Part shown: piece after piece, positions 10,859-64,000 of the stretch
Layout: every line of letters starts with the position of its first letter
Position numbering within the stretch: position 1 is the stretch's first letter
Assembly (NCBI GenBank): GCA_964626755.1
Contig: CAZVGO010000016.1
Coordinates: 6,886 to 70,885 of the forward strand
Length of the DNA stretch: 64,000 nucleotides
Reading direction: 5' to 3'
From: an uncultured Anaerolineaceae bacterium
GTDB taxonomy: Bacteria; Chloroflexota; Limnocylindria; Limnocylindrales; CSP1-4
Translations under genes and position numbers: made by a program
The notes under the pieces: model-generated
Databases searched by the model: none
What the model saw: only the letters and a program-made list of their open reading frames with translations
What the model was told of the DNA's origin: nothing

Positions 10859-10899
10859 CGGGCCTCTCGACCACCGCGACCCGTAACCGGAGGACCTCG

Positions 10900-11916: not shown

Positions 11917-11918
11917 CC

Positions 11919-47368: not shown

Positions 47369-48199
47369 TCACCGGCCCGCGAAGCGCTCCCGCAGCCAGC
47401 CGATGACCTCGTCGATCACCGCCCCTCCCTCGGGCTCGTTGTGCATCTCGTGGCGGAGGCCGGGGTACGTTCGCCGGGTGACGGCGGGCACCTCGCCGAG
47501 AGGGGCGCTGGCGCTCGTGGGGACGAGCCGGTCGGCCTCACCGTGGATCACGAGGGTGGGTACGCGAAGGCCACCGAGCGCCGCCCGGCAGCGGGCCTGC
47601 TCGCGGAGGAACTCCAGCCCGAGGCGGGTGGTCGTCAGATGGTGGTTGAGGGGGTCGGCGAGGTACCGGACGCCGACCTGCGGGTCGCGCGACAGGACGG
47701 CCGTGTCGAGGGCGTTCCTGACCGGCAGGGTCGGGATGGCGACGCCGAGGACGCGGGCGAGGGCGCGCTTCCAGGCCGGCACATCGGCGTCGAGCGCGGG
47801 TGCGGAGAGAACGAGCGCGTCGAGCTTCGGGTCGGTCAGGGCGTACCCGAGCGCCACGAGCCCCCCGAGCGAGTGGCCGTACAACACAACTGGTCCGCCG
47901 GCGGCCGCGGTGTGCGTCGCGGCGAGCCGCTCGGCCAGGTCGTCGTGGAAGCGCGACCAGCGGTCGACCCAGGCGCGCCGTCCGCCGGACGCCCCGAACC
48001 CGCGCTGGTCGTAGGCGTAGACGTCGATGCCCGCCTCGGCAAGTTGAGCCCCGACGTGCTCGTACCGCCCGCTGTGCTCGCCGAGCCCGTGGACGAGCAG
48101 GAGCGTGGCCCACGGCCGGCCGCCGTCCGGAACCGGCCAGTGCCTCGTCGCGAGCTCGGTGCCGTCCGCGACCGTGACGCGGCCGTCCGTCGCGGTCAC
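47369..48199 (-). CDS. alpha/beta hydrolase (lysophospholipase/monoacylglycerol lipase-like)
   Basis: LLLVHGLGEHSGRY, nucleophile elbow GHSLGG, C-terminal HEMHNE. GTG start overlaps the upstream stop; the N-terminal part of the 428-aa ORF is low-complexity. Confidence 0.75.
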   Translation of the reverse strand: MTATDGRVTVADGTELATRHWPVPDGGRPWATLLLVHGLGEHSGRYEHVGAQLAEAGIDVYAYDQRGFGASGGRRAWVDRWSRFHDDLAERLAATHTAAAGGPVVLYGHSLGGLVALGYALTDPKLDALVLSAPALDADVPAWKRALARVLGVAIPTLPVRNALDTAVLSRDPQVGVRYLADPLNHHLTTTRLGLEFLREQARCRAALGGLRVPTLVIHGEADRLVPTSASAPLGEVPAVTRRTYPGLRHEMHNEPEGGAVIDEVIGWLRERFAGR

Positions 48200-49206: not shown

Positions 49207-50954
49207 GATCGCCCGCAGGCCTCCCGCGCCCCGCGGTTCGCCACCCACAGCGAGTGCCTCGCCTCCTCCATCCGGTCGAGGGGCCCGAATGCCTCCTCGG
49301 CAACCGCTTTCTCGACGGCCGCGGACACCTGCGCCCCGAGCTCGCGCGCCCATTTCCGACCGCGCCAGCCCGCGTGCAGGCTGAGCACCCGCGACAGGAT
49401 GAAGCCGAGCGCGAGAAAGCCGACCAGCAAGGCGAACGGAATCGGCACGCGACCGACGATCGGCAGCGTGAAGGCGTCGACCGGCGAGCCAAGGAGGATC
49501 GCGACCACGAGCCACGCAACGCTCAGGACGACGCCGAAGGTCGCAAGCGTCTGGACGATGCCGATCACCGGCCACAGCCGGCTGCTCGGCGGGTCGAGCG
49601 GTCCGTGCTCCGCGATCGCGCCGTCCACGGCCCCCCGGAGGCGGCCACTGACCCGCGGCGCGTCGAGCGTCGCGGCGAGCACCGGGCGGATCGTTGCCGG
49701 CGCCTCGCGGAGCGGGCCGTCGGTCATGGCGCGGAGAGCCCCGATCGCCGGTGCGAGCGACCCGCGCCGGTGCCACGAGGAGAGGAACCGCTGCGGGTCC
49801 GCGACCCGGGCCTGCCGCCCGCTCGCCTTGTAGGCGCGCCCGAGAAGCCAGCCGATCGGACCGGCGCCGGCCGGCCGGGCAGCGACCCGGGTCGCCGCGA
49901 TCGCCTGGCGCTGGGCCGCCGGGATGTCGATCAGCCGGAGGATCTCGTGGTTGGCGGCCTTGATCGCCCGGGCGCGTGCGTCCGCGTCGAGCAACGGCCT
50001 GGCCTCGGCGTTCGGATCGATGCCGGCCTGCTGGGCGAGGTCGTCGAGGGCGGCCCGGATCGATGCGGCGATCCTCCCCGCCACGATCTTCTTGGCGTCG
50101 ACCTGCTCGGCGAGCCAGCCCCGGACCGGCTCCGTCTGTCCGATGACAGCCGCGGTCGCGACGACCTGCGGGTTGACCGCTCCCACCGCGACGTCCTCGC
50201 GGAGCGACCTGTCGAGGTCTCGCCGCACGCGTTCCGTGGACGCGCCAAGCCGGTCGGTCTTGTTCAGCACGACGAGCTGGCGGTCCAGCCGGGGAAGCCA
50301 GTGGCGGAGGAATTCATCGTGGAGGACGGCGTCGCGGTACTTCTCGTGATCGGTGACCCAGATGACGCCGTCCACGCGGGGCAGGAGCTCCTCTACCCGG
50401 GCGCGATTCGCGGGCTCGATGGAGTCCAGGTCGGGCAGGTCGAGGAGCGCGACGCTGCCGAGGCGGCTGTCCTCGTGGCGGAGCACGGTGGTCGTCCCGA
50501 GCCAGCCCAGCAGGGCGTCGATCTCCCCGCCGGCGCTCCGCGGCACCCAGCCGACGGGCTTGTCGGTCGTGGGTCGCCGGGCGGACGCCTCGCTGACGCT
50601 GCCTCCGGCGAGGGCGTTGAGCAGCGTCGACTTGCCGACACCCGTGCCGCCGACGAGCGCCACCACGGAGAGGTCCGACGGAAAGCCGAGGCGCTGGTCC
50701 GCATCGACGCGGACGCTCTCCGCCTCCCCGACAGCGAGATGGAGCCGGCGTCCCGCGGAGACGCCCTCGTCGAGCCGGGCGAGGCAGACGGCGATTCCGC
50801 GCGTCGCGGCGGGACGGCCGACCGTCCAGGAGAGAAATCCCGGCTCCTCCGGTGCCGCAACCCGGGCGCCCGGAGACATCGGCGCCCGCGGATCGACGGC
50901 GCCGTTGTCGGGCGCGTCCTGTCCGATCCCGGTCCGAGGCTGGGTGGCAGTCAC
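49203..50954 (-). CDS. dynamin-like GTPase with C-terminal hydrophobic hairpin (partner 2 of a pair)
   Basis: G1 GGTGVGKSTLLNAL, G3 LLDLPDLDS, G4 LNKTDR. Hydrophobic segments LATFGVVLSVAWLVVAILLG and IPFALLVGFLALGFIL near the C-terminus. Confidence 0.7.
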   Translation of the reverse strand: MTATQPRTGIGQDAPDNGAVDPRAPMSPGARVAAPEEPGFLSWTVGRPAATRGIAVCLARLDEGVSAGRRLHLAVGEAESVRVDADQRLGFPSDLSVVALVGGTGVGKSTLLNALAGGSVSEASARRPTTDKPVGWVPRSAGGEIDALLGWLGTTTVLRHEDSRLGSVALLDLPDLDSIEPANRARVEELLPRVDGVIWVTDHEKYRDAVLHDEFLRHWLPRLDRQLVVLNKTDRLGASTERVRRDLDRSLREDVAVGAVNPQVVATAAVIGQTEPVRGWLAEQVDAKKIVAGRIAASIRAALDDLAQQAGIDPNAEARPLLDADARARAIKAANHEILRLIDIPAAQRQAIAATRVAARPAGAGPIGWLLGRAYKASGRQARVADPQRFLSSWHRRGSLAPAIGALRAMTDGPLREAPATIRPVLAATLDAPRVSGRLRGAVDGAIAEHGPLDPPSSRLWPVIGIVQTLATFGVVLSVAWLVVAILLGSPVDAFTLPIVGRVPIPFALLVGFLALGFILSRVLSLHAGWRGRKWARELGAQVSAAVEKAVAEEAFGPLDRMEEARHSLWVANRGAREACGRS

Positions 50955-50965
50955 GGCGCGTCTCG

Positions 50966-52873
50966 TCAGCGTCCCAGCGACCAGCGCGGGCGAGCCCGCG
51001 GCGCGGCCGCAAGCCCCGCCGGGTCAAGCCTGCCCGCGGGCTCTTCGTCCAGCACGAGCCGGGGAGGGGCCGGCATCATCACCGGCCTGGCCGAGATCGA
51101 GACGGCCGGGGGGAGCGTGCGGAGCTCATCGGCCATCAATCGGATCTCCGCCGACAGGCCACGCAGCCGGTCAGGCGCGGGAACGCGTGCGTCGAACCGC
51201 GCCAGCTCCTCGCGGAACGTCTCGCCCAGGGCCTCGATCAGGCGGTAGCGGGCGCGGCTGATCATCTCGACGAGGGCCGCCTCGCCGAACAGCGCGGACA
51301 GGAGCCGCTGGTTGAGGAACCCTGTGACCGCCGCGATCCCGACCTCGGCGCCGGTGAGTCCACCGGTGTGCGAGAACGTCGCGAGCATCACCCCGATCCC
51401 CGCGGTATTCACGCCGACGCTGGCGCCCTTGGCGAGCGTCCGCTTCGGGCCGCCGGTCCGCCGGACGTCCTCGGCGATCGACGCGAGCCATTCGTCCAGG
51501 CGCACGGCCAGGCGCTTGTCGAGATCCTCGGCAGGGCTCCACGCCGCGGGATCCTTGTCGAGGACTGCGCGCGCGGCGGGCTCCTCCGACCACGCGGCGG
51601 CGGCCCGCCGGATCGCCTCCGTGACCCGCACCTGGGTGAGCGATTTGAGGTCGGCGATCGTCTGCTCCCGGACCTCCGCGACCGGGGCCGTGGGAGCGCC
51701 CCGGAAGAGTTGCGTGAACGAGGACCGGACCTTGCCGATCCCGCTCGAGAACGCCTTCGTGATCTCGTCCGCGCCGACGAAGTCCTGCCACTGTCGGAGG
51801 GCTTCGGCCCGGAGGAACGAGCCCCGGGCGAGCTCGTCCCGCAGCACCCCGAGCTCGCGCTCGAACGCCTCGGTCGCGAGACGCCGCAATCGGTCCGAAT
51901 CGATCGCCGCGTGGTCGAGATCCTCGGAGATCGTGCGGAGCTGCGGCTCGAGGTTGGCGAGCGAGCCCGCGAGCGCACGGGAGGCGAGCTCGAGGCGCGC
52001 CTCGCGGTGCTTCGCGAGGCCGTCGATCCGGTCGATCAGCGGGTGGACGGCCTTCCGGTCGAGGCCGTCGATCTTCGCCTCCAGCGCTCCCTCCTCGACG
52101 CCGACGAGGTCGATCTCCGTCCGTCCCTCGAGCCCCGCGTCGCGGAGGAGGCGGCGAAGGTCCTCGAGGACCACGGCCCGTTCCTCGGAGTCCGTGGGCA
52201 TCCGGTTGACGAGCACGACGAGCGGCAAGCCGCGGTCCCCCACTCGACCGAGGACCTCCCACGGAACGCGATCCGCGTACCGGGTCGCGGTCGTGACGAA
52301 CACCGCGAGATCGGCCGCCTCGACGAGGCGATCGGTCAGCTCGCGGTTGGCGTGCTCGACGGAGTCGACGTCCGGCGCGTCGACGAGGACCACCCCGGCC
52401 CGGGCCGACGTATCTTCGGCGATGAGGATCCGCTGCCGGTCGATCCCGGCGAGTGGCCCGCCCTCCGCGGTGAGCTCGGCCGGGTCGCCCGGACGGGCGA
52501 ACGCCACGAGCTTCCGCGTCGTCGGCCGCAGGACGCCGGTGGCGCTGATGTTCCGGTTGGCCAGCGCGTTGAACAGCGACGACTTGCCGGCTCCGGTCGG
52601 TCCAACCAGCAGGATGAGGATCGGCGCGTCGAGGCCGCGGGCGCGCGGCCGGACGTGACGGACGACATGCTCGGCGAGCTGCTCCGTTCGGCGCCGCGCG
52701 GAGTGGTTCGAGTTCGGCACATCGCGGGCGCGGTCGGCGAGGTCGCCGATCCGGTCCACGAGGTCGACGAGGACGTCCTGGTACGTGCCGCCGCCGCCGG
52801 ATCCCGGGCCGCGCACGGGCGCCCGGTTCGGCGAGACTCCGGTCGCGCCTCCTGAGCGTCGCTCGCGCCTCAT
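50966..52873 (-). CDS. dynamin-like GTPase with C-terminal hydrophobic hairpin (partner 1; start trimmed to MRRERR)
   Basis: G1 GPTGAGKSSLFNAL, G3 LVDAPDVDS, G4 VNRM. TM-like GVNTAGIGVMLATF and GIAAVTGFL. The upstream 243 codons of the ORF are Ser/Arg-rich and overlap the divergent HK gene. Confidence 0.65.
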   Translation of the reverse strand: MRRERRSGGATGVSPNRAPVRGPGSGGGGTYQDVLVDLVDRIGDLADRARDVPNSNHSARRRTEQLAEHVVRHVRPRARGLDAPILILLVGPTGAGKSSLFNALANRNISATGVLRPTTRKLVAFARPGDPAELTAEGGPLAGIDRQRILIAEDTSARAGVVLVDAPDVDSVEHANRELTDRLVEAADLAVFVTTATRYADRVPWEVLGRVGDRGLPLVVLVNRMPTDSEERAVVLEDLRRLLRDAGLEGRTEIDLVGVEEGALEAKIDGLDRKAVHPLIDRIDGLAKHREARLELASRALAGSLANLEPQLRTISEDLDHAAIDSDRLRRLATEAFERELGVLRDELARGSFLRAEALRQWQDFVGADEITKAFSSGIGKVRSSFTQLFRGAPTAPVAEVREQTIADLKSLTQVRVTEAIRRAAAAWSEEPAARAVLDKDPAAWSPAEDLDKRLAVRLDEWLASIAEDVRRTGGPKRTLAKGASVGVNTAGIGVMLATFSHTGGLTGAEVGIAAVTGFLNQRLLSALFGEAALVEMISRARYRLIEALGETFREELARFDARVPAPDRLRGLSAEIRLMADELRTLPPAVSISARPVMMPAPPRLVLDEEPAGRLDPAGLAAAPRARPRWSLGR

Positions 52874-53129
52874 CGCGAAGGTCGGGTTAACCGCCTCGGC
52901 CACCGCTCCTCCTCCTGCCGCCGCCAGAACCTGGCGGTCCGCCCAGCGACGCGTCTCCCGCGCATCGGGGGAGCGATCTTCGCATGCGTCGGCCGCCCAC
53001 GCCACCCCCGATCCTTCGATCGGCGCTGCACCCGCGTATCGCCGGTTGCGGCGCGCGTGCGCGGCGGTGCCGCCCCGCACCGTCGGCAGCGGCGCGGCCG
53101 GGGCGATGGCCGCTGCTACGATCTGGGTG

Positions 53130-54380
53130 ATGTCAGCCGCGGGCGACGAGCGACGCAAGGCCGCGGTCCCCCACGCCCTCCGATCCACCCAGACGGCGGA
53201 GCTGATCCTCGACATCGCGACAGCCGCGGCCGGGGAGCTCGACCTGGACCAGATCCTGCTCGAGACCCTCGACCGCCTTCGGACGGTACTCCCGCTGACC
53301 GGCGGATCGATCGCCCTCGTCGAGGGCGACGACCTCGTCCTCCGGGCTGCGATCGGGCCGTTCGCGGCCGCCGCGCACGGGCAGCGGCTCCGGCGCGGTC
53401 GGTCGCGGAGCTGGGGCGTCATCGAGACGCTCGAGCCGTACCTCAGCGGCGACCTCCAGGCCGCCGGGCTCCACGTCAAGACAACGGGCGCGGAGGACGT
53501 GATTCGGTCGTGGCTGGCGGTGCCGATCGTGCGGCGTGGCCAGGGCATCGGCCTGCTCGAGATCGACTCGACCAACATCGCCGCGTTCGACCAGGGGGAC
53601 ATCGAGCTCCTGACGACGGTCGTCCGAGCCCTTGCCGGACCCGTCGAGCTGGCCAGCCGCTACGCGGAGGAGCGACGAGCCAACGCACTGCGCGAGGCGT
53701 TCATCGGCGTGATCAGCCACGAGCTCCGGACGCCGATCACGACGATCTACGGTCTTAGCAAGATGCTTCGCCAGCGGCTGGACACTCTCGCGCCGGAGGT
53801 TCGGGACCAGCTGGTCGGCGACATCGAGGCGGAATCCGATCGCCTCTACCGGCTCGTCGAGGACCTGCTCGTGCTCAGCCGCGCGGAGCGCGGCAATGTC
53901 GAGATCGCCAACGATCCCATCGTCCTCGCCCACGTCTTGCGCCGGGCGATCGACGGGGAGGCCCTCCGGTGGCCGACCCGCGACTTCTCACTCGAGGTCG
54001 ACCGCCAGGTGCCCCTCGTGCTCGGCGAGGAGACGTACGTCGAGCAGGCCGTCCGCAACCTGCTCTCGAACGCCGCGAAGTACAGCGAGCCGGGCTCAAC
54101 TATCACGGTCCGGCTCGAGTGGGCCGAGGACGAGGTCGTCGTCCGGGTCCTCGACGAGGGGATCGGGATCGCCCCGGAGGATGCCGAGCACGTGTTCGAG
54201 CTGTTCTTCCGGACGCCTCGCGCGTCGCGCCAGGCCGCCGGCGCGGGGATAGGGCTGTTCGTATGCCGCCAGCTCATCGAGGCGATGGGCGGCCGGATCT
54301 GGGCCCGTCCGCGCGACGAGGGCGGCACGGAGGTGGGCTTCGCCCTGCCGGCCCAGGCGGAGGTCGGACCGGACGCCTAG
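53130..54380 (+). CDS. GAF-domain sensor histidine kinase (cytoplasmic, no adjacent response regulator)
   Basis: GAF region, H-box ISHELRTPITTI, N-box LLSNAAKYSEPG, G-boxes DEGIGI and GAGIGL. Confidence 0.85.
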   Translation: MSAAGDERRKAAVPHALRSTQTAELILDIATAAAGELDLDQILLETLDRLRTVLPLTGGSIALVEGDDLVLRAAIGPFAAAAHGQRLRRGRSRSWGVIETLEPYLSGDLQAAGLHVKTTGAEDVIRSWLAVPIVRRGQGIGLLEIDSTNIAAFDQGDIELLTTVVRALAGPVELASRYAEERRANALREAFIGVISHELRTPITTIYGLSKMLRQRLDTLAPEVRDQLVGDIEAESDRLYRLVEDLLVLSRAERGNVEIANDPIVLAHVLRRAIDGEALRWPTRDFSLEVDRQVPLVLGEETYVEQAVRNLLSNAAKYSEPGSTITVRLEWAEDEVVVRVLDEGIGIAPEDAEHVFELFFRTPRASRQAAGAGIGLFVCRQLIEAMGGRIWARPRDEGGTEVGFALPAQAEVGPDA

Positions 54381-55615
54381 CGGCTGAGCGTCTCTCGCAT
54401 ACGAATGACAACGACCAGCCCGGAGATCGCGGTGATCCCGGCCACGGCGCCGATGGCGCTCGACATCCCGAACCGGTCAGCCAGGACGCCGGCGACGATC
54501 GCCCCCGCAACGAATCCCAGGTCCCGCCACAGGCGGTAGACGCCGATCGCCGATCCGCGCCACGCGGGAGCCGCGACGTCGGCGATCGCGGCGAGCAGGG
54601 TTGGGTAGACCATCGCGGTGCCGAGGCCGAGGACGGCCGCGGCGACAATCCAGACCGGGAACGAGGACCCGGCCGCGATTGCCGCGATCGCGGCCGCCTG
54701 GACCAGCATCCCGGCGACGATCAGGCCCTTCCGGCCGATCCGGTCGGACAGCGCACCGGTGCCGACCTGGGCGATGCCCCAGACCGCCGGATAGGTGGCC
54801 GCGAGGACCCCGATCTCCCCTACCCCGAGCCCGGCTGCCGCGTAGTAGAGCGGGAGCAACCCCCACGCCATGCCGTCGTTGAGGTTGTTGACGAGCCCGG
54901 CCTGGGAGGCGGCCGACAGGTTCCGATCGCGCAGCGTCGTCCGCCAGAAGACCTCGCGCCACCTGTGCGACCCGCTCCTCGATCGTTGTCCGCGCTCGAC
55001 CTCGACGTGACCGCTGGTGTCGCGGACGAGGAGCACGGACAGCCCGAGCCCGAGGCCGGCGTACGCGAGCCCGAGCAGGAACGGTCCTGGCCGAAGCCCG
55101 GCCTCGGCCGCGATGAAGCCGGTCGCCAGGGCGGTCAGCGCGACCGCGCCGTAGCCGGCCGCCTCGTTCAGGCCCATTGCGAAGCCGCGCCGCGCCGGCC
55201 CGACGAGGTCGATCTTCATGACGACGGTCATCGACCAGCTCAGTCCCTGGTTGACACCGAGCAGCACATTTGCCGCGATCACCCATTCCCACGACGGCGC
55301 CCAGATGAGCAGGAGCGGGACCGGCAGCCCAACGAGCCAGCCGGCCACAAGAACGGGCTTGCGGCCGTACCGGTCCGCGAAGGCGCCCGCGGCGACGTTC
55401 GCGCCGGCCTTCGTCAGTCCGAACGCGACGATGAACGTCAGCGCGGCCGTGAAGCCGGTGAGCCCGAAAACATCCGTCGCCAGCAGCGGCAGGACCGTCC
55501 GTTCCTGGCCGACCATCCCGCCGACGAGCGCGTTGACCGCGACGAGGAGCGCGAACTGGCCGGCGTTGCTTCCCAGTCCGAGCCGCGGGGAGATCTGCGT
55601 GCCGCTAGAGGTCAC
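54377..55615 (-). CDS. MFS transporter
   Basis: 412 aa, 12 TM. Motif A-like AFADRYGRKPV and ALSDRIGRKG in the two halves. Confidence 0.85.
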   Translation of the reverse strand: MTSSGTQISPRLGLGSNAGQFALLVAVNALVGGMVGQERTVLPLLATDVFGLTGFTAALTFIVAFGLTKAGANVAAGAFADRYGRKPVLVAGWLVGLPVPLLLIWAPSWEWVIAANVLLGVNQGLSWSMTVVMKIDLVGPARRGFAMGLNEAAGYGAVALTALATGFIAAEAGLRPGPFLLGLAYAGLGLGLSVLLVRDTSGHVEVERGQRSRSGSHRWREVFWRTTLRDRNLSAASQAGLVNNLNDGMAWGLLPLYYAAAGLGVGEIGVLAATYPAVWGIAQVGTGALSDRIGRKGLIVAGMLVQAAAIAAIAAGSSFPVWIVAAAVLGLGTAMVYPTLLAAIADVAAPAWRGSAIGVYRLWRDLGFVAGAIVAGVLADRFGMSSAIGAVAGITAISGLVVVIRMRETLSR

Positions 55616-55671
55616 CGCGCGAGGATAGCGAGGGCCGCCCGCGGGCCCGGGGTAGGATCCCGCCTCGTCAC

Positions 55672-55746
55672 TGGCGAGTGGCCGAGAGGTAAGGCGCTTG
55701 ACTCTGGATCAGGAGATCGAAGGTTCGAATCCTTCCTCGCCAGCCA
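55672..55746 (+). tRNA. tRNA-Gln (anticodon CUG)
   Basis: TGGCGAGTGGCCGAGAGGTAAGGCGCTTGACTCTGGATCAGGAGATCGAAGGTTCGAATCCTTCCTCGCCAGCCA. Acceptor TGGCGAG/CTCGCCA, anticodon loop CTCTGGA, T-loop TTCGAAT, discriminator G and CCA. Close to E. coli tRNA-Gln. Confidence 0.85.
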
Positions 55747-55789
55747 AACCACAGCATCTGGGTCTGACCAGCCTCGCTGCGGGTCGGCG

Positions 55790-55900
55790 ACGTCCGTCCA
55801 GACGGGACGCTTCATGTCATGGGCAAGGGCGCCAAAGAGCGGATCGTGCCGATCGGCTCGAGCGCCCGGCGGGCGCTCGCCCGGAGCGGGCGCAGGTCAC
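55790..55900 (+). pseudogene. tyrosine recombinase/integrase remnant (~40 codons), immediately 3' of tRNA-Gln
   Basis: Translates DVRPDGTLHVMGKGAKERIVPIGSSARRALARS, matching the conserved GKGxKERxVPL block of XerC/XerD/phage integrases. It is truncated by the convergent BNR gene. Confidence 0.5.
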
Positions 55901-57144
55901 GCCGGCCAGTCGACGAGTCCCGTCCAGATGGCGAGGCGCGTCTGGGCTCCATCGGACGTCTGGCCGATCACGATGACCCGGTTGGGCTGCACCGGGCTCT
56001 GGATCAGGGCGAGGATGTCGAGGTTGCGGATCGCCACCGGCGCGCCCCACGCGGACTCGCCCGGTCCACGAAGCCAGACGAGGCCCGTCGACTGATTTGG
56101 GTCCGGGCCGGGCTGGCCGGTGCCGGCGGCGACGGAGCCGCCTCCGACGACGAGGTGGTGGCGGACGCGGGCTTCGTCACCTGCCGGGGGCTGCTCGACC
56201 GGTCGCCAGTCGGCAGCCGTCTCATCCGCCGTCCACCCCTCGACCCGGATCGGCGCATCAGCGACGGCGGTCCACCCGAAGGCCACGAATCCACCTTCCA
56301 CGCGGTCGATTGCCGTCACATCGGCTCGTTCAATGCCCCGCGGCGGATCAACCGGCTGCCACGCCGTTCCGTCGACGCTGAGCCACCACGCGGACGCCAC
56401 GGGCCCGCAAACATGCCCGCACCCGGACCCCCACGCGAGGAGTCCGCCGGCCACCGGAAGAATGTGCGTAGGGTACCCCTCCGCGTTGTTGACGATCTTT
56501 GCAGCCGCCTGCCACGTCCTGCCGTCGACCGACGACCATGACCGCAAGCCGTTGAAGCTCATGTACGCGTCGCTTCCGACGGCGAGGACGCCGCCGTCGG
56601 TGACCAGCAACACGCTTATCGCCGCGTCGGCCGCGGACTGCGGCGTGGTCTGCGTCCAGCCCCCGGCGTCGCGTATCCAGATCGACGCCTGGACCCGGTC
56701 GCCTTGTCCGACATAGCCGGCAGCGATGGTTCCGAATTGCGAGGAGGACGCGGCCAGGACAGTGCCCCTCGTGGCGTTCGGAGGGAGAAAGACGGGACCG
56801 GCCGTCCGCCACTCGAGTCCGTCCGCCGACTCCCAGATGGCCGGCAGTTCGCAGCCCTCCGCGGCCGACACGCAGCCAAGGGCAAGGAACCGGTCCCCGG
56901 CGGAGACGACCGATTGGAAGACGCCGTCACCCAGCCCGCTCTGCGGCGGCAGCTGCTGCCACTCGGCGAGACCGCCCGGAGGCGGTGCCTCAGGGGAGAC
57001 GGGGGCGACCGAGCCGGTGATTGCGGGGCTCGACAGTCGAGAGGCTGCGGGCGACGTCGTGGGGCTCAGTGCCACGCTGCACGCTGCCGGCACGAGGCCG
57101 AGCGCCACTGCCACGATCTGGCGCGCCATGCGGGGACGATTCAT
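55897..57144 (-). CDS. BNR/Asp-box repeat lipoprotein (beta-propeller), paralogue A
   Basis: Signal plus lipobox VPAAC. Repeated S-x-D-x-G-x-T-W Asp-boxes (WESADGLEWRT, WSSVDGRTWQA, WLSVDGTAWQP). Confidence 0.6.
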   Translation of the reverse strand: MNRPRMARQIVAVALGLVPAACSVALSPTTSPAASRLSSPAITGSVAPVSPEAPPPGGLAEWQQLPPQSGLGDGVFQSVVSAGDRFLALGCVSAAEGCELPAIWESADGLEWRTAGPVFLPPNATRGTVLAASSSQFGTIAAGYVGQGDRVQASIWIRDAGGWTQTTPQSAADAAISVLLVTDGGVLAVGSDAYMSFNGLRSWSSVDGRTWQAAAKIVNNAEGYPTHILPVAGGLLAWGSGCGHVCGPVASAWWLSVDGTAWQPVDPPRGIERADVTAIDRVEGGFVAFGWTAVADAPIRVEGWTADETAADWRPVEQPPAGDEARVRHHLVVGGGSVAAGTGQPGPDPNQSTGLVWLRGPGESAWGAPVAIRNLDILALIQSPVQPNRVIVIGQTSDGAQTRLAIWTGLVDWPA

Positions 57145-58478
57145 ACCGCCCAGTCGACGAGACCCGTCCAGATGACGTGGCGCGTCAGCGATCCGTCGAA
57201 TATCTGGCCGAACACGATGACCCGGTTTGGCTGTGTCGGGCTCTGGATCAGTGCGAAGATCGCCACGTCTGGAATCGCCGCTGGCGCGCGCCAGGTTGTT
57301 TCGCCGGGTCCGCGCAGCCAGACGAGGCTCCCCGGCTGGCCCGGGTCCGGACCGACCTGGCCGGTGCCGGCGGCGACGGACCCGCCTCCGACGACGAGGT
57401 GGTCGACGACTCGGGCGTTATCCGGTGCCGGCGGCGGATCGACCGATCGCCACGCACCGGCCGTCTCATCCGCCGCCCACGCCTTGACTTGCATCGGCGC
57501 ATCTGCGAGGGGGTATTCCCCGAAGGCCGCGAAACCACCGTCCGTGCGATCCATCGCCGTCACCCAGACATCCTCGAGGCCCGGCGGCGGATCGGCCGGC
57601 TGCCAGTCCGTTCCGTCGACGCTGAGCCACCACGCGGAAGGGACGGGCGGGCAAATGGCGCACGCGTGTCCCCACGCGAGGAAGGCGCCGTCCAATGGGA
57701 GCAGGTTCGTCGGGGAGCCACCCTGGTCGCCCGCGATCGGTGGACCCGCCTGCCACGTCGTGCCGTCCGCCGACCACCAGGCCCTGAAGCCGCCGAAGGT
57801 CGGAAACACCTGGCTCCCGACGGCGATGACGCGGTCGTTCGTGGCCAGCAACGCGGTGACCGTGGAATCGGCCGCCGACGGCGGCGAGAACTGAGTCCAG
57901 CCGCCGCCGTCGCGAAGCCAAATGGATGCCTGGCTCCGGTCGCCCTGTCCGACACTGCCCACCGCCAGGGTGCCGAATCGCGACAACGACACAGCAGAGA
58001 TCGTGCCCCGCGTGGCGGTGGGAGGGAGAGAGACGGGACCGGCCGTCCGCCACGCGATCCCTTCGGCCGACTCCCAGATGGCCGGCAGATCGCAGCGCTC
58101 CGCATTGACGATGCAGCCAAGGCCGAAGAACCGGTCCCCCACGGTGACAACCGAGTGGACCACCCCGCCGGCGAGCCCGTCTTGCGGCGGGAGCTGCTGC
58201 CATTCGGCGAGACCGGCCGGAGGCGGTTGCGATGGGTCCGGGACGAGCGAGCCGGACACCGCGGGGCTCGACGGTCGGGCGGTCGCGGGCGACGTCGTGG
58301 GGCTCGGTGCCACGCTGCACGCGGCCTGCCCGAAGCCGAGCGCCAGTGCGACGATCACGCGCACGAAGCGACCCGTCGATCTCGTCATTGGCCCCTCGGC
58401 CCTCCGGAAGGAAGGTACCACCCCGGTATCGCGCCACCTCTCCCGTAGACTGCCGCCGATGAACCACACGCCCGACAC
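57141..58478 (-). CDS. BNR/Asp-box repeat lipoprotein (beta-propeller), paralogue B
   Basis: Lipobox GQAAC. Asp-boxes WESAEGIAWRT, WWSADGTTWQA, WLSVDGTDWQP. 4-nt overlap with paralogue A and collinear with it. Confidence 0.6.
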   Translation of the reverse strand: MSGVWFIGGSLRERWRDTGVVPSFRRAEGPMTRSTGRFVRVIVALALGFGQAACSVAPSPTTSPATARPSSPAVSGSLVPDPSQPPPAGLAEWQQLPPQDGLAGGVVHSVVTVGDRFFGLGCIVNAERCDLPAIWESAEGIAWRTAGPVSLPPTATRGTISAVSLSRFGTLAVGSVGQGDRSQASIWLRDGGGWTQFSPPSAADSTVTALLATNDRVIAVGSQVFPTFGGFRAWWSADGTTWQAGPPIAGDQGGSPTNLLPLDGAFLAWGHACAICPPVPSAWWLSVDGTDWQPADPPPGLEDVWVTAMDRTDGGFAAFGEYPLADAPMQVKAWAADETAGAWRSVDPPPAPDNARVVDHLVVGGGSVAAGTGQVGPDPGQPGSLVWLRGPGETTWRAPAAIPDVAIFALIQSPTQPNRVIVFGQIFDGSLTRHVIWTGLVDWAV

Positions 58479-58730
58479 GTTCCGGACGGTGATGGGCCAC
58501 TTCGTGACCGGCGTCGGTCGTCACAGCGGTAGACGCTCACCGGCCACAGGGCATTACAGTCAACGCGCCTCAGCTCCGTCTCGCTCGAGCCCCCGCTCGT
58601 GATGGTCGCCCTCGATCGGCGCCGGTTCATCACTCCTACGGTTCGTCACGCGGGCCGCTTCGCGGTCAACATCCTGGCCGAGGACCAGCAGGCGCTCTCG
58701 GACTGCTTTGCGGGCGCGGACGTGACCCTA
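58449..58730 (+). pseudogene. flavin reductase-like (FMN-binding split barrel) gene remnant with two apparent frameshifts
   Basis: Frame A gives MNHTPDTFRTVMGHFVTGVG. Frame B gives ...GITVNA. Frame C gives SSVSLEPPLVMVALDRRRFITPTVRHAGRFAVNILAEDQQALSDCFAG. Together these rebuild the conserved flavin-reductase N-terminal half. The C-terminal half is absent or overlapped by the convergent gene. Confidence 0.45.
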
Positions 58731-60119
58731 TCGTTGCCCGACGAACTCTCCGGCCGGCGAAAAGACGAGCGTCTCGTGCTCCGGGTCTTCGCAGGACGGC
58801 TCGCAGATGGCGACGTCGGCGACGAGCCGGCCGCGTTCGTCGACCGCGAGGTGGGTCGCGCGGGTGTGCTCCCCGAGTCCGACGGGCCAGCCGCGGACGA
58901 CCGCGCCCGCAGCATCGATCGCGGTGAGCGAGCCTTCCGCGAGTGCCACGTAGAGGGTCCCGTCGGGCCCGAATGCGGGGCGGATGAGACCGGCGCACGG
59001 CACGTCGCCCATCCGGCACGGGGTCTCCACCTCGCCACCGAGTGGCACCGGCCAGCCGCGCGCGACGTCGCCGTCCAGATCGAGGACGATGGCGTGATCC
59101 TGACCATCGGAGATCGGAAGAAGGAATACGAGTCGTCCGCCCGGAGCGAGCTCCGGCGCCACCGGCGACGGCAGCTCGTAGGGCCACCCGTCGGCGTTCG
59201 TGCCGTCGGCGAGGAGTCGCCACGCGTTGCCGGACGTGCTCGTAAACGCGATCGACCCATCGCCAAGGATGACCCCGTGTGACGCGGCGCCGACCGATCC
59301 GCGTGGCCAGCCCGGACGGACGGCACCGTCCTCGCCGTACATGGCAAATTCGGTCCTCGCGGCAGCCAGCTCGATCCTCGGCTCGACGCCTTCGTAGCCC
59401 CAGGCGAGAGTCCGACCGTCCGACCCAATCGCGAAGCCTCGGCAGCCGTTGCCGCCGATCCCATCGACCCCGGGCGGATCGCCCGGGAACGGCTGAGGCC
59501 ATCCGGCGACGCGGCGACCTTCGGGCGTCAGGACGTGGAGGCGCGCTGCGGTCTCGTCCGCGACTGCGACGACGATCGTCCCGTTGGGCTTGATGGCAAG
59601 GGACGAGCCTTCATCCCCGCAGCCAACCGTAAAGCGGTTCTCGTAGACGGATGCCGTCGAGCCCGGCAGCGAGAGCGGCCAGCCGGCGACCGCGTTCGCC
59701 CCGACATCGAAGGCGTGAACGAGCATGCCGTCCGGACTGTCGCACGCGGCATAGGCCACGCCGCCCGGCGACTTTGCCGTCCCGCGGCACCGCCCGGGCA
59801 GGAGGACGGGCCAGCCAGGCTCGTCACCGGCCGGTTCCGGGACCTAGGTGACGCGGCACGCATCGTCGCCCGAGCAGTCGAGGGCGTGCCACTCGACGCC
59901 GTCGGTCGGGAACCCGTTGGTCGGCAAGGCGGCCGACGGGGTCGGCAGCGAGCCCGAGGGAGACACTTCGAGTGTCGCTGCGGGCGATGCCGACGATGGT
60001 GGAGGCCCGGACGGTCCCGGGCGGACCGATGGCGCAGGCGCGACCGTGCACGATGCGAGCAGGGCAGCAAGCAGGATCGTCCCGACCCTGATACGGCGGG
60101 AGGGCGGGGCCGAAGGCAT
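58728..60119 (-). pseudogene. GWP-repeat beta-propeller lipoprotein interrupted by an in-frame TAG at 59844..59846
   Basis: 59847..60119 encodes a signal plus lipobox (ILLAALLASCTVAP) and linker. After the TAG the same frame continues, VPEPAGDEPGWPVLL..., into the 343-aa ORF with repeated GWP motifs. Confidence 0.55.
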
Positions 60120-60409
60120 ACGACGGACCTCGTGGGGCGTGCGAACGCTGATGAGACGCGCAAACCCCGGTCAGCGTGGCACGGATGCGCGACGGCTATT
60201 GGGGCGAGGCTAACTAACGCTAGAGGTCCAGTCTTGTCTGGTCGCCCTTCGTCGTGCGTCGCCGCCTCGGCTCGTCTCCAGCCTTTCGGCTGCCTTCGAT
60301 AGCCGGGTACGAGCTGAACTTACAGGTTTGCCCAGTGTCGAACTGGACGGTTGCCATGTGCCGTCGGCCCTGGCACGTAGGTCGCCCTTGCGCGACTCGA
60401 GGGCCGCGG

Positions 60410-61510
60410 TCACAACATCGTCGATCGGAGGAACCGGCAGGCCCGCAGGGTGACCCACTTGCTGGGGTGTCCCTGGGGCTCGAAGTCGACCCAGGTCTTG
60501 CCGTTGTAGGCGTACTCGTTGCGCCATCGTCCCTGCCCGTCCTGCTTCGCGAGCAGCCACTCGGTAACCCGTTGAAGGCGCGCGTCTCCGCCGTATCCCA
60601 GCTCGGCCAGGACCTCGGCGTTCTGGAGGACGTCTGTCACGTAGGCCGACGGGAAGCCGAGCCTGAACCAGGAACGGTTGGGCTTCGTGTTGCCCCAGCC
60701 CGCGGGGTAGTCGGCATCGGCCGGATCGCGGCTCAGCAGGAAGCCCACGCCCTGCTCGATGGCCCGCGCTACGAGCGGCGAGCGCTCGGCCATGGGAATC
60801 CGGGCCAGGCCGCCGATCGCCTTGACCGCACCCCAGGCGCAGGGCAGCTTCTCGTTGGCGGCGCACGCGAAGCCCGGACCGCAGGTCCCGGAAGCGTACC
60901 AGCGCTCCATGCCCTCCCCTGTGATCGCCCGCGCCTGCCAGTCGGCCGCGGCAGCGAGCCGTTCATCGCCAAGCCAGCCGAAGCCGATCAGGGCCCGCAG
61001 CAGGTTGCCGTTGAGGCAATGGATGACCGCGGACAGCGGCGGTGGGTCGTCGCCTGCCCTTCCGGACGCACCGAAGCCGCCGCTGGCGGCGGGCGTATGG
61101 TCGAGGACGTAGTTGCAGGCGCGCCGCACGCGCTCATCGCGTCCGTCCGCGCCGAGCTGGTCGAGGAAGATCACCTGCCACACGGTGCCCCGGTACTTGG
61201 TCGCGTACCCGGGTCCGGGCTTCTCCCACCAGCCGTCCGGGTGCTGACCCGCCAGGATCGCGGCGATCGGGTCGGCGGCCATCGCGGCCCGTTGACTCTC
61301 CACGACCTCCCGGTCATCCGCAGGACGGTCGAGCAGCTGCACGAGCGCCAGGTGGCGCACGGCCGGGTTGGCTGGATCGAGCAGCCAGTCCGTGGGGTCG
61401 GCACGGAGCGCCCTGCGCCACCCGGCCACGGCCGGCGGTTCGACGGGGGTTTCGCCCTCGGGCGGATGCGCCGGCATGTTCGGACTGCAGGATCGGATCG
61501 CCATCGACAA
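60410..61510 (-). CDS. hypothetical protein, possibly alpha/alpha-toroid (prenyltransferase/terpene-cyclase-like) fold
   Basis: 366 aa, Trp-rich with repeated aromatic/Gly blocks (QHPDGWWEK, GTCGPGFACAANEKLPCAWG). Family assignment is uncertain. Confidence 0.4.
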   Translation of the reverse strand: MSMAIRSCSPNMPAHPPEGETPVEPPAVAGWRRALRADPTDWLLDPANPAVRHLALVQLLDRPADDREVVESQRAAMAADPIAAILAGQHPDGWWEKPGPGYATKYRGTVWQVIFLDQLGADGRDERVRRACNYVLDHTPAASGGFGASGRAGDDPPPLSAVIHCLNGNLLRALIGFGWLGDERLAAAADWQARAITGEGMERWYASGTCGPGFACAANEKLPCAWGAVKAIGGLARIPMAERSPLVARAIEQGVGFLLSRDPADADYPAGWGNTKPNRSWFRLGFPSAYVTDVLQNAEVLAELGYGGDARLQRVTEWLLAKQDGQGRWRNEYAYNGKTWVDFEPQGHPSKWVTLRACRFLRSTML

Positions 61511-61666
61511 CCTCCAGGCGAACGCTAGCCACTGCGAGTGTGGGGCGGCGAGTGCCGAACGTCGTTCGGGCGCGGGCCGTTCGGCCGCCCCGCGGGTCGC
61601 GACGAGGGCCCATAGGCGTTCTGGCGGGCGAATTCGGGCGGTTCGGGCCTTCCGCGCGAGGGGGCC

Positions 61667-62773
61667 ATGGGGTATGGGTTGGTTGTGTCAGCACCCCGGA
61701 TTCGCCGCACGTTCCTCGCGTTCGCTGTCGTCTCGACACTGCTGGCGAGCTGCACCGGGGCTTCCACGGTCACGCCCCCTCCGCGGCCCACTGCGCCCAG
61801 CGCCGTCGTGTCCGCCAGCCCCGGGCCCTCGCCGACGGCCAGCGCGACGCTTGCTCCGTCGGCGAGCCCCAACCCGCCGCCATTGGGGCCTGGTGACAGC
61901 GCCTATGTCTCGGTCGTCGTCGCGACGGGGTGGCGCGAGCCAGGCTCGGCCCGGCTGGTGGACGCGCCTGCGCTGGCGCAACCGGTGTCGATCCGCGAGT
62001 GGCTTGGGTCCCTGAGCCGGGCCGACCAGGAGGGCCTGATTGGCCGCGCGGACACGCAGATGCTCCTCGGTGAGCCCGTGCGGGTGACCGAGGTCCGTGG
62101 CAGCTGGATCCGGGTCACGGTGCCCGCCCAGTCGACGCCGCTCGACCCGCTCGGCTATCCCGTCTGGATGCCCGCCCGGCAGCTGACGGCCACCGCGCCC
62201 CCGGCCACGACGACCAGGGCCACGGTCACGACGCCGACGGCCTGGCTCGAGGATGGCGGTGGTCGTCGCCAGCTGGAGCTGAGCTTCGGAACCCGGCTGC
62301 CGGTGGTGTCGAGCGGCGACGGTCGGATCGAGGTGTCTCTGCCGGACGGCCGCCGGCTGTGGATCCCGTCTGCGGCCGTCGCCGTTGGCCCCGCCGAGAG
62401 GCCCGCTCGAGCACCCACGGCGACGTCGATCGTCGAGACGGCCCGTGGGTTCCTCGGGACCCGCTACCTGTGGGCGGGGACGTCCGGCTTCGGCTTCGAC
62501 TGCTCGGGCCTCGTCTACGCCGTGTACCGGCTGCACGGGATCGACCTGCCGCGCGACAGCGCCCCGCAGTCGACTGCTGGACATGCGGTGGCCAGGGCGG
62601 ACCTCCGTGCGGGCGACCTCGTGTTCTTCGGGAGTGGCGGCCGCGTCCGCCACGTCGCGATCTACGCAGGCGGGGGCAGGATCATCGAGTCGCCGTTCGT
62701 GGCCGGCGAGATCCGCGAAGCGGAGCTCGCCGGCCGGGAGGGGTACGTCGGCGCTCGGCGCGTGCTGCCGTAG
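61667..62773 (+). CDS. NlpC/P60 family peptidoglycan endopeptidase lipoprotein with SH3-like N-terminal domains
   Basis: Lipobox LLASCTG. Catalytic Cys motif FDCSGLVYAVY. Downstream His HVAIYAGGGRIIESP. Confidence 0.85.
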   Translation: MGYGLVVSAPRIRRTFLAFAVVSTLLASCTGASTVTPPPRPTAPSAVVSASPGPSPTASATLAPSASPNPPPLGPGDSAYVSVVVATGWREPGSARLVDAPALAQPVSIREWLGSLSRADQEGLIGRADTQMLLGEPVRVTEVRGSWIRVTVPAQSTPLDPLGYPVWMPARQLTATAPPATTTRATVTTPTAWLEDGGGRRQLELSFGTRLPVVSSGDGRIEVSLPDGRRLWIPSAAVAVGPAERPARAPTATSIVETARGFLGTRYLWAGTSGFGFDCSGLVYAVYRLHGIDLPRDSAPQSTAGHAVARADLRAGDLVFFGSGGRVRHVAIYAGGGRIIESPFVAGEIREAELAGREGYVGARRVLP

Positions 62774-62828
62774 CGCGCGCCCGATCTATGACCAGGCAAC
62801 GGCACGGGCGCCGGCGGACGTTGAGTCG

Positions 62829-63781
62829 TCAGCTCAGGAGCTCGTCGAGGCTGACGAGCGCGAAGCCCGCCTCCCGGAGGCCGGCCACGATCCGCGGCAG
62901 CGCCTCGTAGGTCTCGTAGCCCCCGAGATGCATCAGGACGATGGATCCGCCCTGCGCCCGGTCGAGGACTTTCGCCACGATCTGATCGGCGGTCGGACCG
63001 GGCGGGTCGTTCTTGATCGGCCGCCAATCGATCGTGTCGATGTCCCAGGTGACCGTGTATCGGTAGCCCGCCGCGCCGACCGCAGCGAGGACGTCGGCGT
63101 CGTAGCCGCCGTTGGGCGGTCGGAAGAACGGCCGCAGATCCTGCGAGCAATACGGCGCAATCGCGGCTTCGGTCCGTCGTAGCTCATCCCGGATCTCGGC
63201 CGCGGTCAGCGTCCGGAAGTCGCGGTGCGTGTACGAGTGGTTGCCGAGCGTGAAGAGCTCGGGGTGCGCCTCGACGATCGCCAGCACCTGGCGGCCGGCG
63301 TCCGTGTTCGGGTTGTCGGCCATGGCGCCGGTCATGTAGATCGAGGCGTGGACGTCATGCTCGACGAGCCAATTCACGATCGCGAGCGCGTCGCCGACGC
63401 GACCACCCATGTCGAGCGTGAGCGCGACTTCGAGGCCGGATCTCGAGCCGTGGGTGATCAGGCGACTCGACACGGGCGTCGGAGTCGGCGTGGGCGTCGG
63501 CCGCTCGGTTGGCGTTGGTGTGGGCGCCGCGGTCGGGCGGGGCGTCTGTGTCGGGGTGGGCGTCGGGCTGGGCGCGGGCGAGGGGGACGCGGTGGGCGTG
63601 GGAGCGGCTGTCGCCGACGGTGCCACCGACGCGGTGATTGCGGGCGTGCTCGAAACCGTGGGCACGACGGTCGCGGGCGGAGACGCGGCGGGCCCGATTG
63701 AGCAGCCGACCACGGATGTCGTGGCGGCCAGGATCGCAAGCGCCCGCCAGGCGCGCCGCCGGATCGTGGACAGATGAGCCA
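62829..63781 (-). CDS. polysaccharide deacetylase (NodB homology domain) lipoprotein with Pro/Thr-rich linker
   Basis: Signal/lipobox VVGCS. Linker TPTPTQTPRPTAAPTPTPTERPTPTPTPTP. NodB motifs TLDMGG, HSYTHRDF, LMHLGG. Confidence 0.85.
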
Positions 63782-64000
63782 TCAGCCCAAGGCTAGGCGC
63801 CCGAACGCCTGCCAGCCACGGCGAAACGGCAGGAATCGGTGGGTCAAACAGCCTCTTCACGATAGAGAAGTCGGCGGCCGACCGCGCGGGGCAACAACCG
63901 GCTCGGCTACCGACTATTGACCTGCCCGGAAGGGGCCGTTCGGCAGGCGAATCCCTCAGTCAGATTGAGACAGTTCTGGCTGAGATGGCGTACCTGGCCC

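Follow-up and report, generated by a model that had tools for sequence, protein, structure and literature searches.

A composite scar at a tRNA-Gln gene probably joins a nearly erased integrative element to a rearranged chromosomal fragment

Analysing a 64-kb stretch of DNA (64,000 nt, hereafter the window), we find that the locus beginning at a tRNA-Gln gene is probably a composite scar. In this reading, to which we give a probability of about 75%, a nearly erased integrative element lies next to a rearranged chromosomal fragment, and the two do not form a coherent island. The lipoprotein and flavin reductase genes of the locus are best read, from their sequence and context, as a displaced and broken piece of ordinary chromosome and not as cargo of the element. 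An earlier note on this DNA had described the locus as a degraded island; the integrase remnant and the tRNA-Gln integration site of that description stand, whereas its assignment of the lipoprotein and flavin reductase genes to the island does not.

Results

An integrase remnant follows an intact tRNA-Gln gene

ARAGORN and Rfam (RF00005, 66.8 bits) identify a tRNA-Gln gene with the anticodon CTG at 55672-55746 on the plus strand. The gene is intact and encodes its CCA, as Islander expects for one end of a putative element. A spacer common to integrase-bearing relatives (55747-55770, plus strand) comes next and ends at a 5′ deletion junction at about 55767-55771. It leads into an internal remnant of a Xer-like tyrosine recombinase/integrase on the plus strand (55771-55883, 113 nt), recognised by NCBIfam, Pfam and BLASTP. 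The frame from 55768 (+) translates as PASLRVGDVRPDGTLHVMGKGAKERIVPIGSSARRALAR, and a stop codon (55765-55767) stands directly before it. About 37 codons survive, close to the roughly 40 of the earlier note.

Searching NCBIfam with the remnant, we obtained tyrosine-recombinase models only (NF001399, E=4.1e-7; XerC, 2.1e-6; XerD, 2.5e-6). Phage_integrase was the sole Pfam match (E=0.024), and a PDB search with the peptide led to XerD. The remnant is identical at 34/38 positions to residues 156-193 of a full-length 302-aa integrase in L092 (pairwise BLASTP, 3e-22) and 97% identical to the protein P0042, and its DNA (55771-55883) shows 88.5% nucleotide identity to L093. The earlier proposal of a tRNA-Gln followed by a plus-strand tyrosine-recombinase remnant is thus borne out, and the peptide that it had suggested checking against integrase HMMs scores with recombinase families alone.

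Most of the integrase gene is gone. Window positions 55671-55767 correspond to positions 97-195 of L090, and positions 55771-55864 to 778-871; this split alignment indicates that about 582 nt of the 5′ part of the integrase are missing in the window. Mapping the deletion against both L090 and L092, we found a 6-nt microhomology (GTCYGA) at the junction. The catalytic set is incomplete, as residues 156-193 (the Lys hairpin region) are kept and the rest of the gene is absent, and we predict from the sequence that the fragment is non-functional. The neighbouring convergent lipoprotein gene had been thought to overwrite the integrase. There is no overlap: the remnant ends 12-15 nt past the stop codon of that gene, lipoA.

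The relatives speak to the origin of the remnant. Downstream of tRNA-Gln, the contigs L090, L092 and L097 each carry a longer or complete version of this integrase, read in the direction of the tRNA. L093 and L095 have the integrase gene amid four direct repeats of a tRNA fragment, accompanied by IS and orphan genes. Many truncated copies occur among the 591 integrase homologues. To the left of tRNA-Gln there is partial synteny with L092: in both, a hydrolase and an ADH lie about 6.5 kb upstream. Scanning viral contigs with the reconstructed integrase gave no match.

We see hardly any chance that the peptide is a housekeeping xerC/xerD-type remnant or a chance match instead of a piece of a mobile-element integrase. 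Its best profiles are indeed XerC/XerD-type rather than phage integrase families, and the full-length gene in L092 is followed by a housekeeping-looking ung gene, with no attR within 11 kb. However, a full-length relative scores 173 bits against an XerC cut-off of 335 and is therefore not an XerC equivalog. The position next to the tRNA-Gln 3′ end, seen in three relatives, the copies within the four-repeat arrays and the many truncated homologues also speak against a housekeeping gene, and an E-value of 4e-7 together with the identity to P0042 rules out a chance match.

The 3′ part of tRNA-Gln appears to be an attachment site

The candidate att core is a 47-nt sequence that runs from the anticodon loop to the tRNA 3′ end (55700-55746, plus strand; GACTCTGGATCAGGAGATCGAAGGTTCGAATCCTTCCTCGCCAGCCA). 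This 47-mer occurs once in the 64-kb window. The identical 47-mer occurs four times each in L093 and L095, as direct repeats of the tRNA-Gln 3′ end, and it is also present in L092, L094, L096 and L026; a diverged form is found in L090, L097 and L098. Judging by these sequences, tRNA-Gln appears to be the attB/attL site of a family of Xer-like integrase elements, and it appears to be a genuine integration site or hotspot in this lineage. In L098, the att fragment and the integrase adjoin a cyclase gene, and a related cyclase flanks the lipoprotein cluster (see below) in L081, which hints at a recurrent association of some kind.

A direct repeat of the tRNA-Gln 3′ end had been expected further downstream. 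Performing 47-mer, 25-mer and 17-mer searches, we found no displaced tRNA-Gln fragment (attR) in the whole 64 kb. Only 8.3 kb are visible 3′ of the tRNA, so an attR could lie beyond position 64000. The site at 63808-63818 that the earlier note had put forward was rejected, being one of 72 chance-level matches.

The adjoining block is a fragment of a conserved chromosomal cluster

Using blastn, we find that 2,845 bp of the window (55882-58726, minus strand) are colinear with a conserved flavin reductase/lipoprotein cluster. The block holds the 5′ part of the flavin reductase gene, lipoB and lipoA. It shows 84% identity to L081 (positions 7058-9906) and to L082, 73% to L084 and 70% to L085 and L086. 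L081 and L082 belong to one sample series with L093 and L094, and a single sample yielded both L082 and L094. The neighbourhood of flavin reductase, lipoprotein(s) and fumarase recurs in L081, L082, L084, L085, L086 and L099, and the cluster is kept among relatives from 84% nucleotide identity down to 57% amino acid identity. No tRNA, integrase or att copy was found within 6-10 kb of the cluster in the relatives, and none of the other genes flanking their cluster is found in the window. A gene order that relatives keep at a distance from tRNA genes and att sites comes close to what the earlier note had itself named as evidence against an island.

Two intact genes make up most of the block. lipoA (55897-57144, minus strand) encodes a 415-aa putative lipoprotein that is 100% identical to P0001 and is predicted to form a beta-propeller. 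lipoB (57141-58388, minus strand; P0006, repeat families D1-D4) encodes a 415-aa paralogue. The two are 64% identical in protein and about 77% in DNA at a spacing of 1241-1244 nt, and the lipoB stop codon overlaps the lipoA start codon in ATGA. The pair had been called tandem BNR/Asp-box lipoproteins. The tandem paralogy is confirmed, and the propeller model and the Asp-box-like motifs agree in part with the BNR/Asp-box label, but no Pfam BNR model matches either protein: at E≤1, lipoA has no family at all and lipoB has one spurious TB match. Homologues give at most a faint match to PF25852 (DUF6242_C). The AlphaFold (AF2) model of lipoA (pLDDT 81) is an all-beta propeller, with Foldseek neighbours that include sortilin Vps10p, sialidases and Ycf48, and also Kelch and GH43 proteins, at TM-scores of 0.3-0.55. 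W-x-S-x-D-G-x-x-W motifs are invariant across the lipoprotein family, which is limited to about 40 sequences from Limnocylindrales-like genomes.

Upstream of lipoB lies a flavin reductase (PF01613) pseudogene (58461-58727, plus strand), detected by tblastn in three frames (58459-58515, 58511-58567 and 58569-58727), by DNA alignment and by a partial Pfam match (25.1 bits vs a cut-off of 27). Two nt are deleted near 58515 and one is inserted near 58567, which confirms the two frameshifts described earlier; the 3′ end is truncated as well. The last homologous codon corresponds to residue 132 of 216 in L081, equivalent to residue 90 of 175 in L085; the missing C-terminal part comes to about 43-84 residues, a third to half of the protein, according to the homologue used. 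Compared with the full-length L081 protein, the piece at 58569-58727 is 96% identical and the other two are 79% and 74% identical. The dN/dS of the surviving piece against a relative is 0.05, which indicates that the inactivation is recent and not old, contrary to the old decay proposed earlier. From this value, the gene appears to have been under strong purifying selection until recently. The dN/dS of lipoA against its L081 orthologue is 0.50, and the intact lipoproteins range from 0.44 to 0.62.

A GWP-repeat gene with a nonsense codon borders the block

Beyond the block lies a gene for a GWP-repeat (PQQ-like beta-propeller) lipoprotein (58728-60119, minus strand), recognised by its translation and by a homologue in L088. 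PDB matches of the protein are PQQ-type and designed propellers (E=1e-11). As had been noticed before, the gene is split by an in-frame TAG (59844-59846, codon 92), which parts the lipoprotein signal from the propeller; in the intact homologue of L088 (512 aa), the coding frame continues over this position. A metagenome scan with the GWP protein returned two short contigs that confirm the nonsense codon and give no synteny. We rejected TAG as a sense codon (pyrrolysine), because the same gene terminates in TAG and nothing else hints at recoding.

The junctions are sharp

Homology of the block to relatives stops sharply at both ends. The left junction (55882-55885) lies just past the lipoA stop codon. 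At the right junction (58726/58727), the flavin reductase truncation point abuts the stop codon of the GWP gene within 1-2 nt, a position that could be off by about 30 nt. We put down to chance a short apparent extension of homology past this junction (...PDELSG... in the window vs ...RDEFCG... in flavin reductase): on the opposite strand, the same stretch codes for what looks like the native final beta-strand of the GWP protein (cf. L088).

The window comes from a metagenome-assembled contig, and its junctions are read from the assembly. The source, and the abrupt end of homology at both junctions, would suit an assembly artefact in which these junctions are chimeric joins of different regions or strains. 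We regard this as very improbable, since chimeric joins would have to have formed at two places 2.85 kb apart, neither of them with a shared repeat. Moreover, the truncated gene carries extra frameshifts while its neighbours are intact, as expected of decay after truncation, and comparison with L090 and L092 reveals an independent deletion within the integrase remnant. The intact genes next to the lesions also indicate that the lesions are not general assembly noise.

Searching for informative relatives, we found no close relative that has tRNA-Gln and the lipoprotein cluster on one contig, so the fragment may have come to lie beside the scar by a translocation or by two large deletions. No empty-site relative with syntenic flanks at tRNA-Gln was found. 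Scanning genome contigs with the adjacent MFS transporter yielded 80 loci (60-77% identity, many phyla), none of them syntenic; L026 alone among these has a tRNA-Gln, in a different context.

Tetranucleotide composition is not atypical (z <1.2). GC3 drops from 0.90-0.93 left of the tRNA to 0.82-0.87 right of it. The lower GC3 would also suit a more recently acquired right flank.

These data bear on the idea of a single old integrative element that starts at tRNA-Gln and reaches at least to 60119, with the lipoprotein, flavin reductase and GWP genes as co-decaying cargo. The tRNA with its integrase remnant, two pseudogenes inside 4.5 kb, the somewhat lower GC3 to the right and a narrow, tandemly expanded lipoprotein family, as is often the case for accessory genes, all agree with it. 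We nevertheless consider it unlikely. The order of flavin reductase, lipoprotein and, in part, fumarase is conserved in relatives, where no tRNA, integrase or att copy lies within 6-10 kb, and the window has a mere fragment of this cluster, cut inside a gene. The lack of an attR in the 64 kb and the ordinary tetranucleotide usage point the same way, as do the intact lipoA and lipoB genes with dN/dS <1 and the strong purifying selection that acted on flavin reductase until recently.

Discussion

What each part is, where the junctions fall, which att repeats relatives carry and in what conserved context the cluster occurs elsewhere are all observed directly. From these observations we propose a history of the composite scar; the order and mechanism of its rearrangements (illegitimate recombination or deletion) are what we infer. 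tRNA-Gln(CTG) would be an attachment site for Xer-like tyrosine-recombinase elements common in Limnocylindrales-type Chloroflexota, and this family is, or was, presumably integrating actively. Recombination would take place in the last 47 nt of the tRNA, which run from the anticodon loop through CCA. The integrase gene would sit directly 3′ of the tRNA and point the same way. The lineage of the window probably once hosted such an element and has since lost nearly all of it. The 5′ half of the integrase would have gone in a deletion of about 580 nt at the 6-nt microhomology. A second break, at 55882-55885, would have taken everything 3′ of codon ~193, leaving an inert 113-nt internal fragment, and would have fused this scar to a 2.85-kb fragment of a chromosomal cluster in which flavin reductase and a lipoB-lipoA operon are divergently oriented. 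Flavin reductase would have been truncated by a third break (58726/58727), next to the stop codon of the unrelated GWP gene. The lipoB-lipoA operon, having retained its promoter region, would have stayed intact, while the truncated flavin reductase probably gained its two frameshifts afterwards and the GWP gene its nonsense codon independently.

It is quite doubtful that the tRNA-Gln hotspot captures and shuffles fragments of chromosomal clusters, so that the lipoprotein operon arrived as cargo of a composite element and the att fragment and integrase of L098 are another trace of this. If true, a fast-evolving, lineage-specific family of surface proteins would be mobilisable between Limnocylindrales genomes.

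Read as a composite scar, the feature is an ordinary trace of genome rearrangement, of a known kind, and its value is mainly for annotation. An integrase fragment of 37 codons can be recognised reliably, and a tRNA, an integrase scar and pseudogenes together do not by themselves delimit an island; the neighbours here are displaced chromosomal genes. As a by-product, we describe a putative integration system for a poorly studied class, Limnocylindria (Chloroflexota), with a Xer-like integrase family, a tRNA-Gln(CTG) target and a 47-nt att core. This could aid the annotation of mobile elements and, in principle, the building of genetic tools.

Comparison with known systems

Among beta-propellers, lipoA and lipoB resemble the BNR/Asp-box proteins (sialidases, sortilin Vps10p, Ycf48) in a predicted multi-bladed propeller with W-x-S-x-D-G-x-x-W at blade positions, and these proteins rank among the top Foldseek neighbours. 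They differ in having no Pfam BNR match and TM-scores of just 0.3-0.55. Their motif is one residue shorter than the classical Asp-box, S-x-D-x-G-x-T-W.

Like XerC and XerD (PF00589; TIGR02224/TIGR02225), the integrase remnant aligns to model positions ~149-198 of 295-300, the region of the beta-hairpin (GKGxKER-VP) with the catalytic Lys, and its full-length relatives of about 290-305 aa span the entire XerC model. Unlike XerC and XerD, these relatives score far below the equivalog cut-offs and are tRNA-associated, and the copy in the window is without both Arg residues, the His-x-x-Arg motif and the Tyr nucleophile of tyrosine recombinases.

In Islander, as outlined by Hudson, Lau and Williams (2015, PMC4383910), an island in a tRNA gene consists of a tyrosine integrase, a regenerated tDNA and a displaced 3′ tDNA fragment. 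The window differs in having no displaced fragment, functional integrase or identifiable cargo, and its genes next to the remnant form a piece of a conserved chromosomal cluster. The end of an island is therefore unmappable here, and the locus would fail the Islander filters as outlined there. The likeness lies in the intact tRNA at one end, in the integrase remnant directly 3′ of it, oriented as in relatives, and in an att core that consists of the 3′ part of the tDNA from the anticodon loop onwards. Such a core would place the locus in the class that PMC4383910 tabulates as 'anticodon centered attP site'. Finally, the tandem arrays in L093 and L095 match a situation that Islander also records, with 4 entries under 'Tandems >= 3' alongside 3,919 islands (PMC4383910).

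An integrase remnant beside tRNA-Gln

The window has a G+C content of ~72%, and the nearest relatives of its genes lie in metagenome-assembled Candidatus Limnocylindrales/Chloroflexota genomes. Both ARAGORN and Rfam place one copy of tRNA-Gln(CTG) on the plus strand at 55672-55746. An earlier note had proposed a degraded genomic island here, starting from an integrase-like peptide after the tRNA. We find this peptide to be genuine. The plus-strand frame from 55768 reads PASLRVGDVRPDGTLHVMGKGAKERIVPIGSSARRALAR. Searching it against 24,736 Pfam models gave Phage_integrase as the sole match (E=0.024, profile positions 43-81 of 172), and all five NCBIfam matches were tyrosine recombinases (best NF001399, E=4.1e-7; XerC, 2.1e-6; XerD, 2.5e-6) at model positions ~149-198 of 295-300. 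The PDB matches were XerD and XerC-like chains only, and the PHROGs matches were integrase families only. The 47-residue fragment found one database protein, P0042, which is 97% identical and annotated XerC. The tRNA and the integrase scar are what the note took them for.

In the related contig L090, tRNA-Gln(CTG) is followed after ~95 nt by an integrase in the same orientation, of which the N-terminal SAM-like domain and the first part of the catalytic domain are present. This copy is itself frameshifted and cut, ending after ...KERIVPIG; therefore, the integrase has decayed independently in the two lineages. Since the alignment to L090 jumps from 97-195 (window 55671-55767) to 778-871 (window 55771-55864; 93.6% identity), ~582 nt of the integrase 5' half are missing from the window. 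The microhomology GTCYGA is common to both endpoints of this deletion. Homology of the integrase-derived bases to another contig, L093, extends to 55883.

Joining the L090 and window sequences into one reconstructed protein and searching with it, we found 591 homologues, many of ~290-305 aa and many truncated. In the contig L092, a full-length 302-aa integrase lies 141 nt past tRNA-Gln(CTG) on the same strand, and L097 shows the same arrangement. The window peptide is identical to residues 156-193 of the L092 integrase at 34 of 38 positions (pairwise E=3e-22). This integrase spans the whole XerC model but reaches only 173 bits where the cut-off is 335; it is Xer-like, not XerC. A second, more divergent tyrosine-recombinase gene lies convergently just downstream in L092 (11541-12458) and L097 (10949-11998); in L092, a ung gene sits between the two.

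The hydrolase-ADH pair ~6.5 kb upstream of tRNA-Gln is common to the window and L092, and the left side of the tRNA therefore looks like backbone. The MFS transporter gene beside the tRNA (54377-55615) has homologues (60-77% identical) in Actinomycetota, Proteobacteria, Myxococcota, Gemmatimonadota and others. The gene neighbourhoods of these homologues are not conserved, a pattern that suggests spread by frequent horizontal transfer.

Tandem copies of the tRNA-Gln 3' end in relatives

The contigs L093 and L095 carry a frameshifted integrase copy, together with four direct repeats (L093 9769-16183; L095 5981-12396) of the 47-nt 3' end of tRNA-Gln, which reaches from the anticodon loop to CCA. 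The repeats are spaced by 3367, 1376 and 1625 nt. Three repeats are identical to window 55700-55746, one of these over 46 nt, and the fourth has a single mismatch. Orphan genes and a BtrH_N/DUF4872 gene lie between the repeats, and an rve_3 transposase fragment lies just past the last. The array is one of tandem decayed mini-elements, and the relatives make tRNA-Gln a demonstrable integration hotspot. The integrase occurs in the first segment only, copies 1 and 3 have left flanks that are mutually homologous, and L093 has a further 15-nt remnant of the tRNA 3' part at 17449.

In the 64-kb window, the 47-mer occurs only once, and shorter tRNA-Gln probes with mismatches gave nothing meaningful. 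The attR candidate suggested at 63808-63818 is one among 72 equal-quality matches, against 43 expected by chance, and we discard it.

The genes beside the scar belong to a lineage-conserved cluster

The tandem paralogues lipoA (55897-57144) and lipoB (57141-58388) are 64% identical, with overlapping stop and start codons, and have ~40 homologues in total among 5.8 billion proteins. The relatives with context are L081/L082/L083 (81% aa), L084 (77%), L099 and L085/L086 (57%). Every one carries 1-4 tandem lipoprotein copies divergent from an intact Flavin_Reduct gene, with the fumarase gene next wherever the contig reaches (partial at the L099 contig end). No tRNA, integrase or att copy was found on these cluster contigs. 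In DNA, window 55882-58726 and L081 7058-9906 are colinear and 84% identical, and the homology ends sharply on both sides. The left end lies 12-15 nt beyond the lipoA stop codon, meeting the last integrase-derived bases. On the right, the block breaks off within the flavin reductase gene, whose final homologous codon corresponds to L081 residue 132 of 216 (equivalent to L085 residue 90 of 175). The convergent GWP-repeat lipoprotein gene has its TAG stop (58728-58730) 1-2 nt away from this point. The other cluster-flanking genes of the relatives (cyclase, hydrolase, enoyl-CoA hydratase and fumarase) were not found in the window. The genes adjoining the scar thus do not appear to be island cargo.

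In L098, a DZR/guanylate-cyclase/AAA_16 gene with 68% DNA identity to the L081 cyclase that flanks the flavin reductase is followed directly by a 61-nt 3' tRNA-Gln fragment (not the full tRNA) and a 279-aa integrase (9875-10840); the element family and this neighbourhood may be linked.

Both lipoprotein genes are intact, with dN/dS of 0.44-0.62; they are fast-evolving yet constrained, and the values suggest fast-evolving surface proteins. L081, the closest relative, has four tandem copies (7430-12373; 405, 415, 287 and 410 aa), the window two and L085/L086 one. The note had labelled them BNR/Asp-box propellers. An AlphaFold2 model from 34 homologues (pLDDT 81, pTM 0.79) is all-beta, with ~27 strands behind a disordered 50-residue lipoprotein linker. 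At E~1e-7 to 1e-5, Foldseek matched it to many PDB propellers, among them sortilin Vps10p, sialidases and Ycf48 as well as Kelch, CylK and GH43, with TM-scores of only 0.3-0.55. The W-x-S-x-D-G-x-x-W motifs, invariant in the family alignment, resemble the Asp-box, although the classical motif is one residue longer. Predicted beta-propeller lipoproteins with Asp-box-like turns is a fair description; Pfam found no BNR repeat, and membership of the BNR family is at most putative.

Two pseudogenes

The flavin reductase remnant runs through three frames (58459-58515, 58511-58567 and 58569-58727), with the two frameshifts that the note had described, namely the loss of 2 nt (GGCGT--CGGTC) and the gain of 1 nt (AACGCGCCTCAGC vs AACGCG-CTGAGC). 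The third piece shares 96% identity with the L081 protein, and its dN/dS is 0.05; therefore, strong constraint acted on the gene over most of the period since the two lineages diverged, and the gene was inactivated recently.

The GWP gene (58728-60119) encodes a good lipoprotein signal (LLASC) and seven GWP-containing repeats, with sequence similarity to PQQ-type and designed beta-propellers (E down to 1e-11). It is indeed split by an in-frame TAG at codon 92 (59844-59846), a position across which an intact 512-aa homologue in L088 is coding. Just beyond the flavin reductase truncation, plus-strand 58727-58760 reads ...LSLPDELSGRR, with faint likeness to the ...PGRDEFCGAS of the relatives; the minus strand here codes for the GWP protein's C-terminal strand. 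The likeness is probably chance, but it leaves a possible uncertainty of about 30 nt in the position of the right junction.

A probable composite of three parts at one locus

Tetranucleotide distance in 3-kb windows across 55-61 kb lies between z=-1.7 and +1.1 relative to the window mean. Over 47381-64000, GC3 is 0.90-0.93 in genes left of tRNA-Gln and 0.82-0.87 in all genes to its right (lipoA/B, GWP, prenyltransferase-like, NlpC/P60 and deacetylase); tetranucleotide usage is not atypical. This step in GC3 is modest and not decisive; it could reflect gene class or a somewhat more recent arrival. Right of the scar runs a series of cell-envelope genes: a 366-aa protein (60410-61510) with a sub-threshold squalene-hopene-cyclase C-terminal match (prenyltransferase-like alpha/alpha toroid), an NlpC/P60-SH3 peptidase and a polysaccharide deacetylase lipoprotein (62829-63860). 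A short imperfect tandem repeat of GGGCGTCGG-type units at 63474-63584 encodes, on the minus strand, the Pro/Thr-rich linker (PTPTPT...) of the last.

The observation in the note is confirmed, and its island interpretation is partly supported: the tRNA, the scar and the hotspot in relatives stand, while the 4.4-kb stretch as one element does not. The stretch most probably consists of three separate things: an almost erased element at tRNA-Gln, a displaced fragment of the lineage-conserved cluster truncated at both ends, and an unrelated GWP gene with a nonsense mutation. The cluster block may have moved here, or two larger deletions may have joined the tRNA locus to a once more distant cluster. 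The three mapped breakpoints resemble products of illegitimate recombination at short microhomologies rich in G+C; that the junctions are instead an assembly chimera is unlikely.

The locus is a feature of known kind in a little-studied lineage. The signs used by Islander, a method for genomic islands at tRNA genes, are a regenerated tDNA, displaced 3' fragments and a tyrosine integrase (PMC4383910). Only 4 entries are placed under 'Tandems >= 3' there, beside 3,919 islands (PMC4383910). By these signs, the four-repeat pattern in L093 and L095 marks tandem integrations at a tRNA gene.
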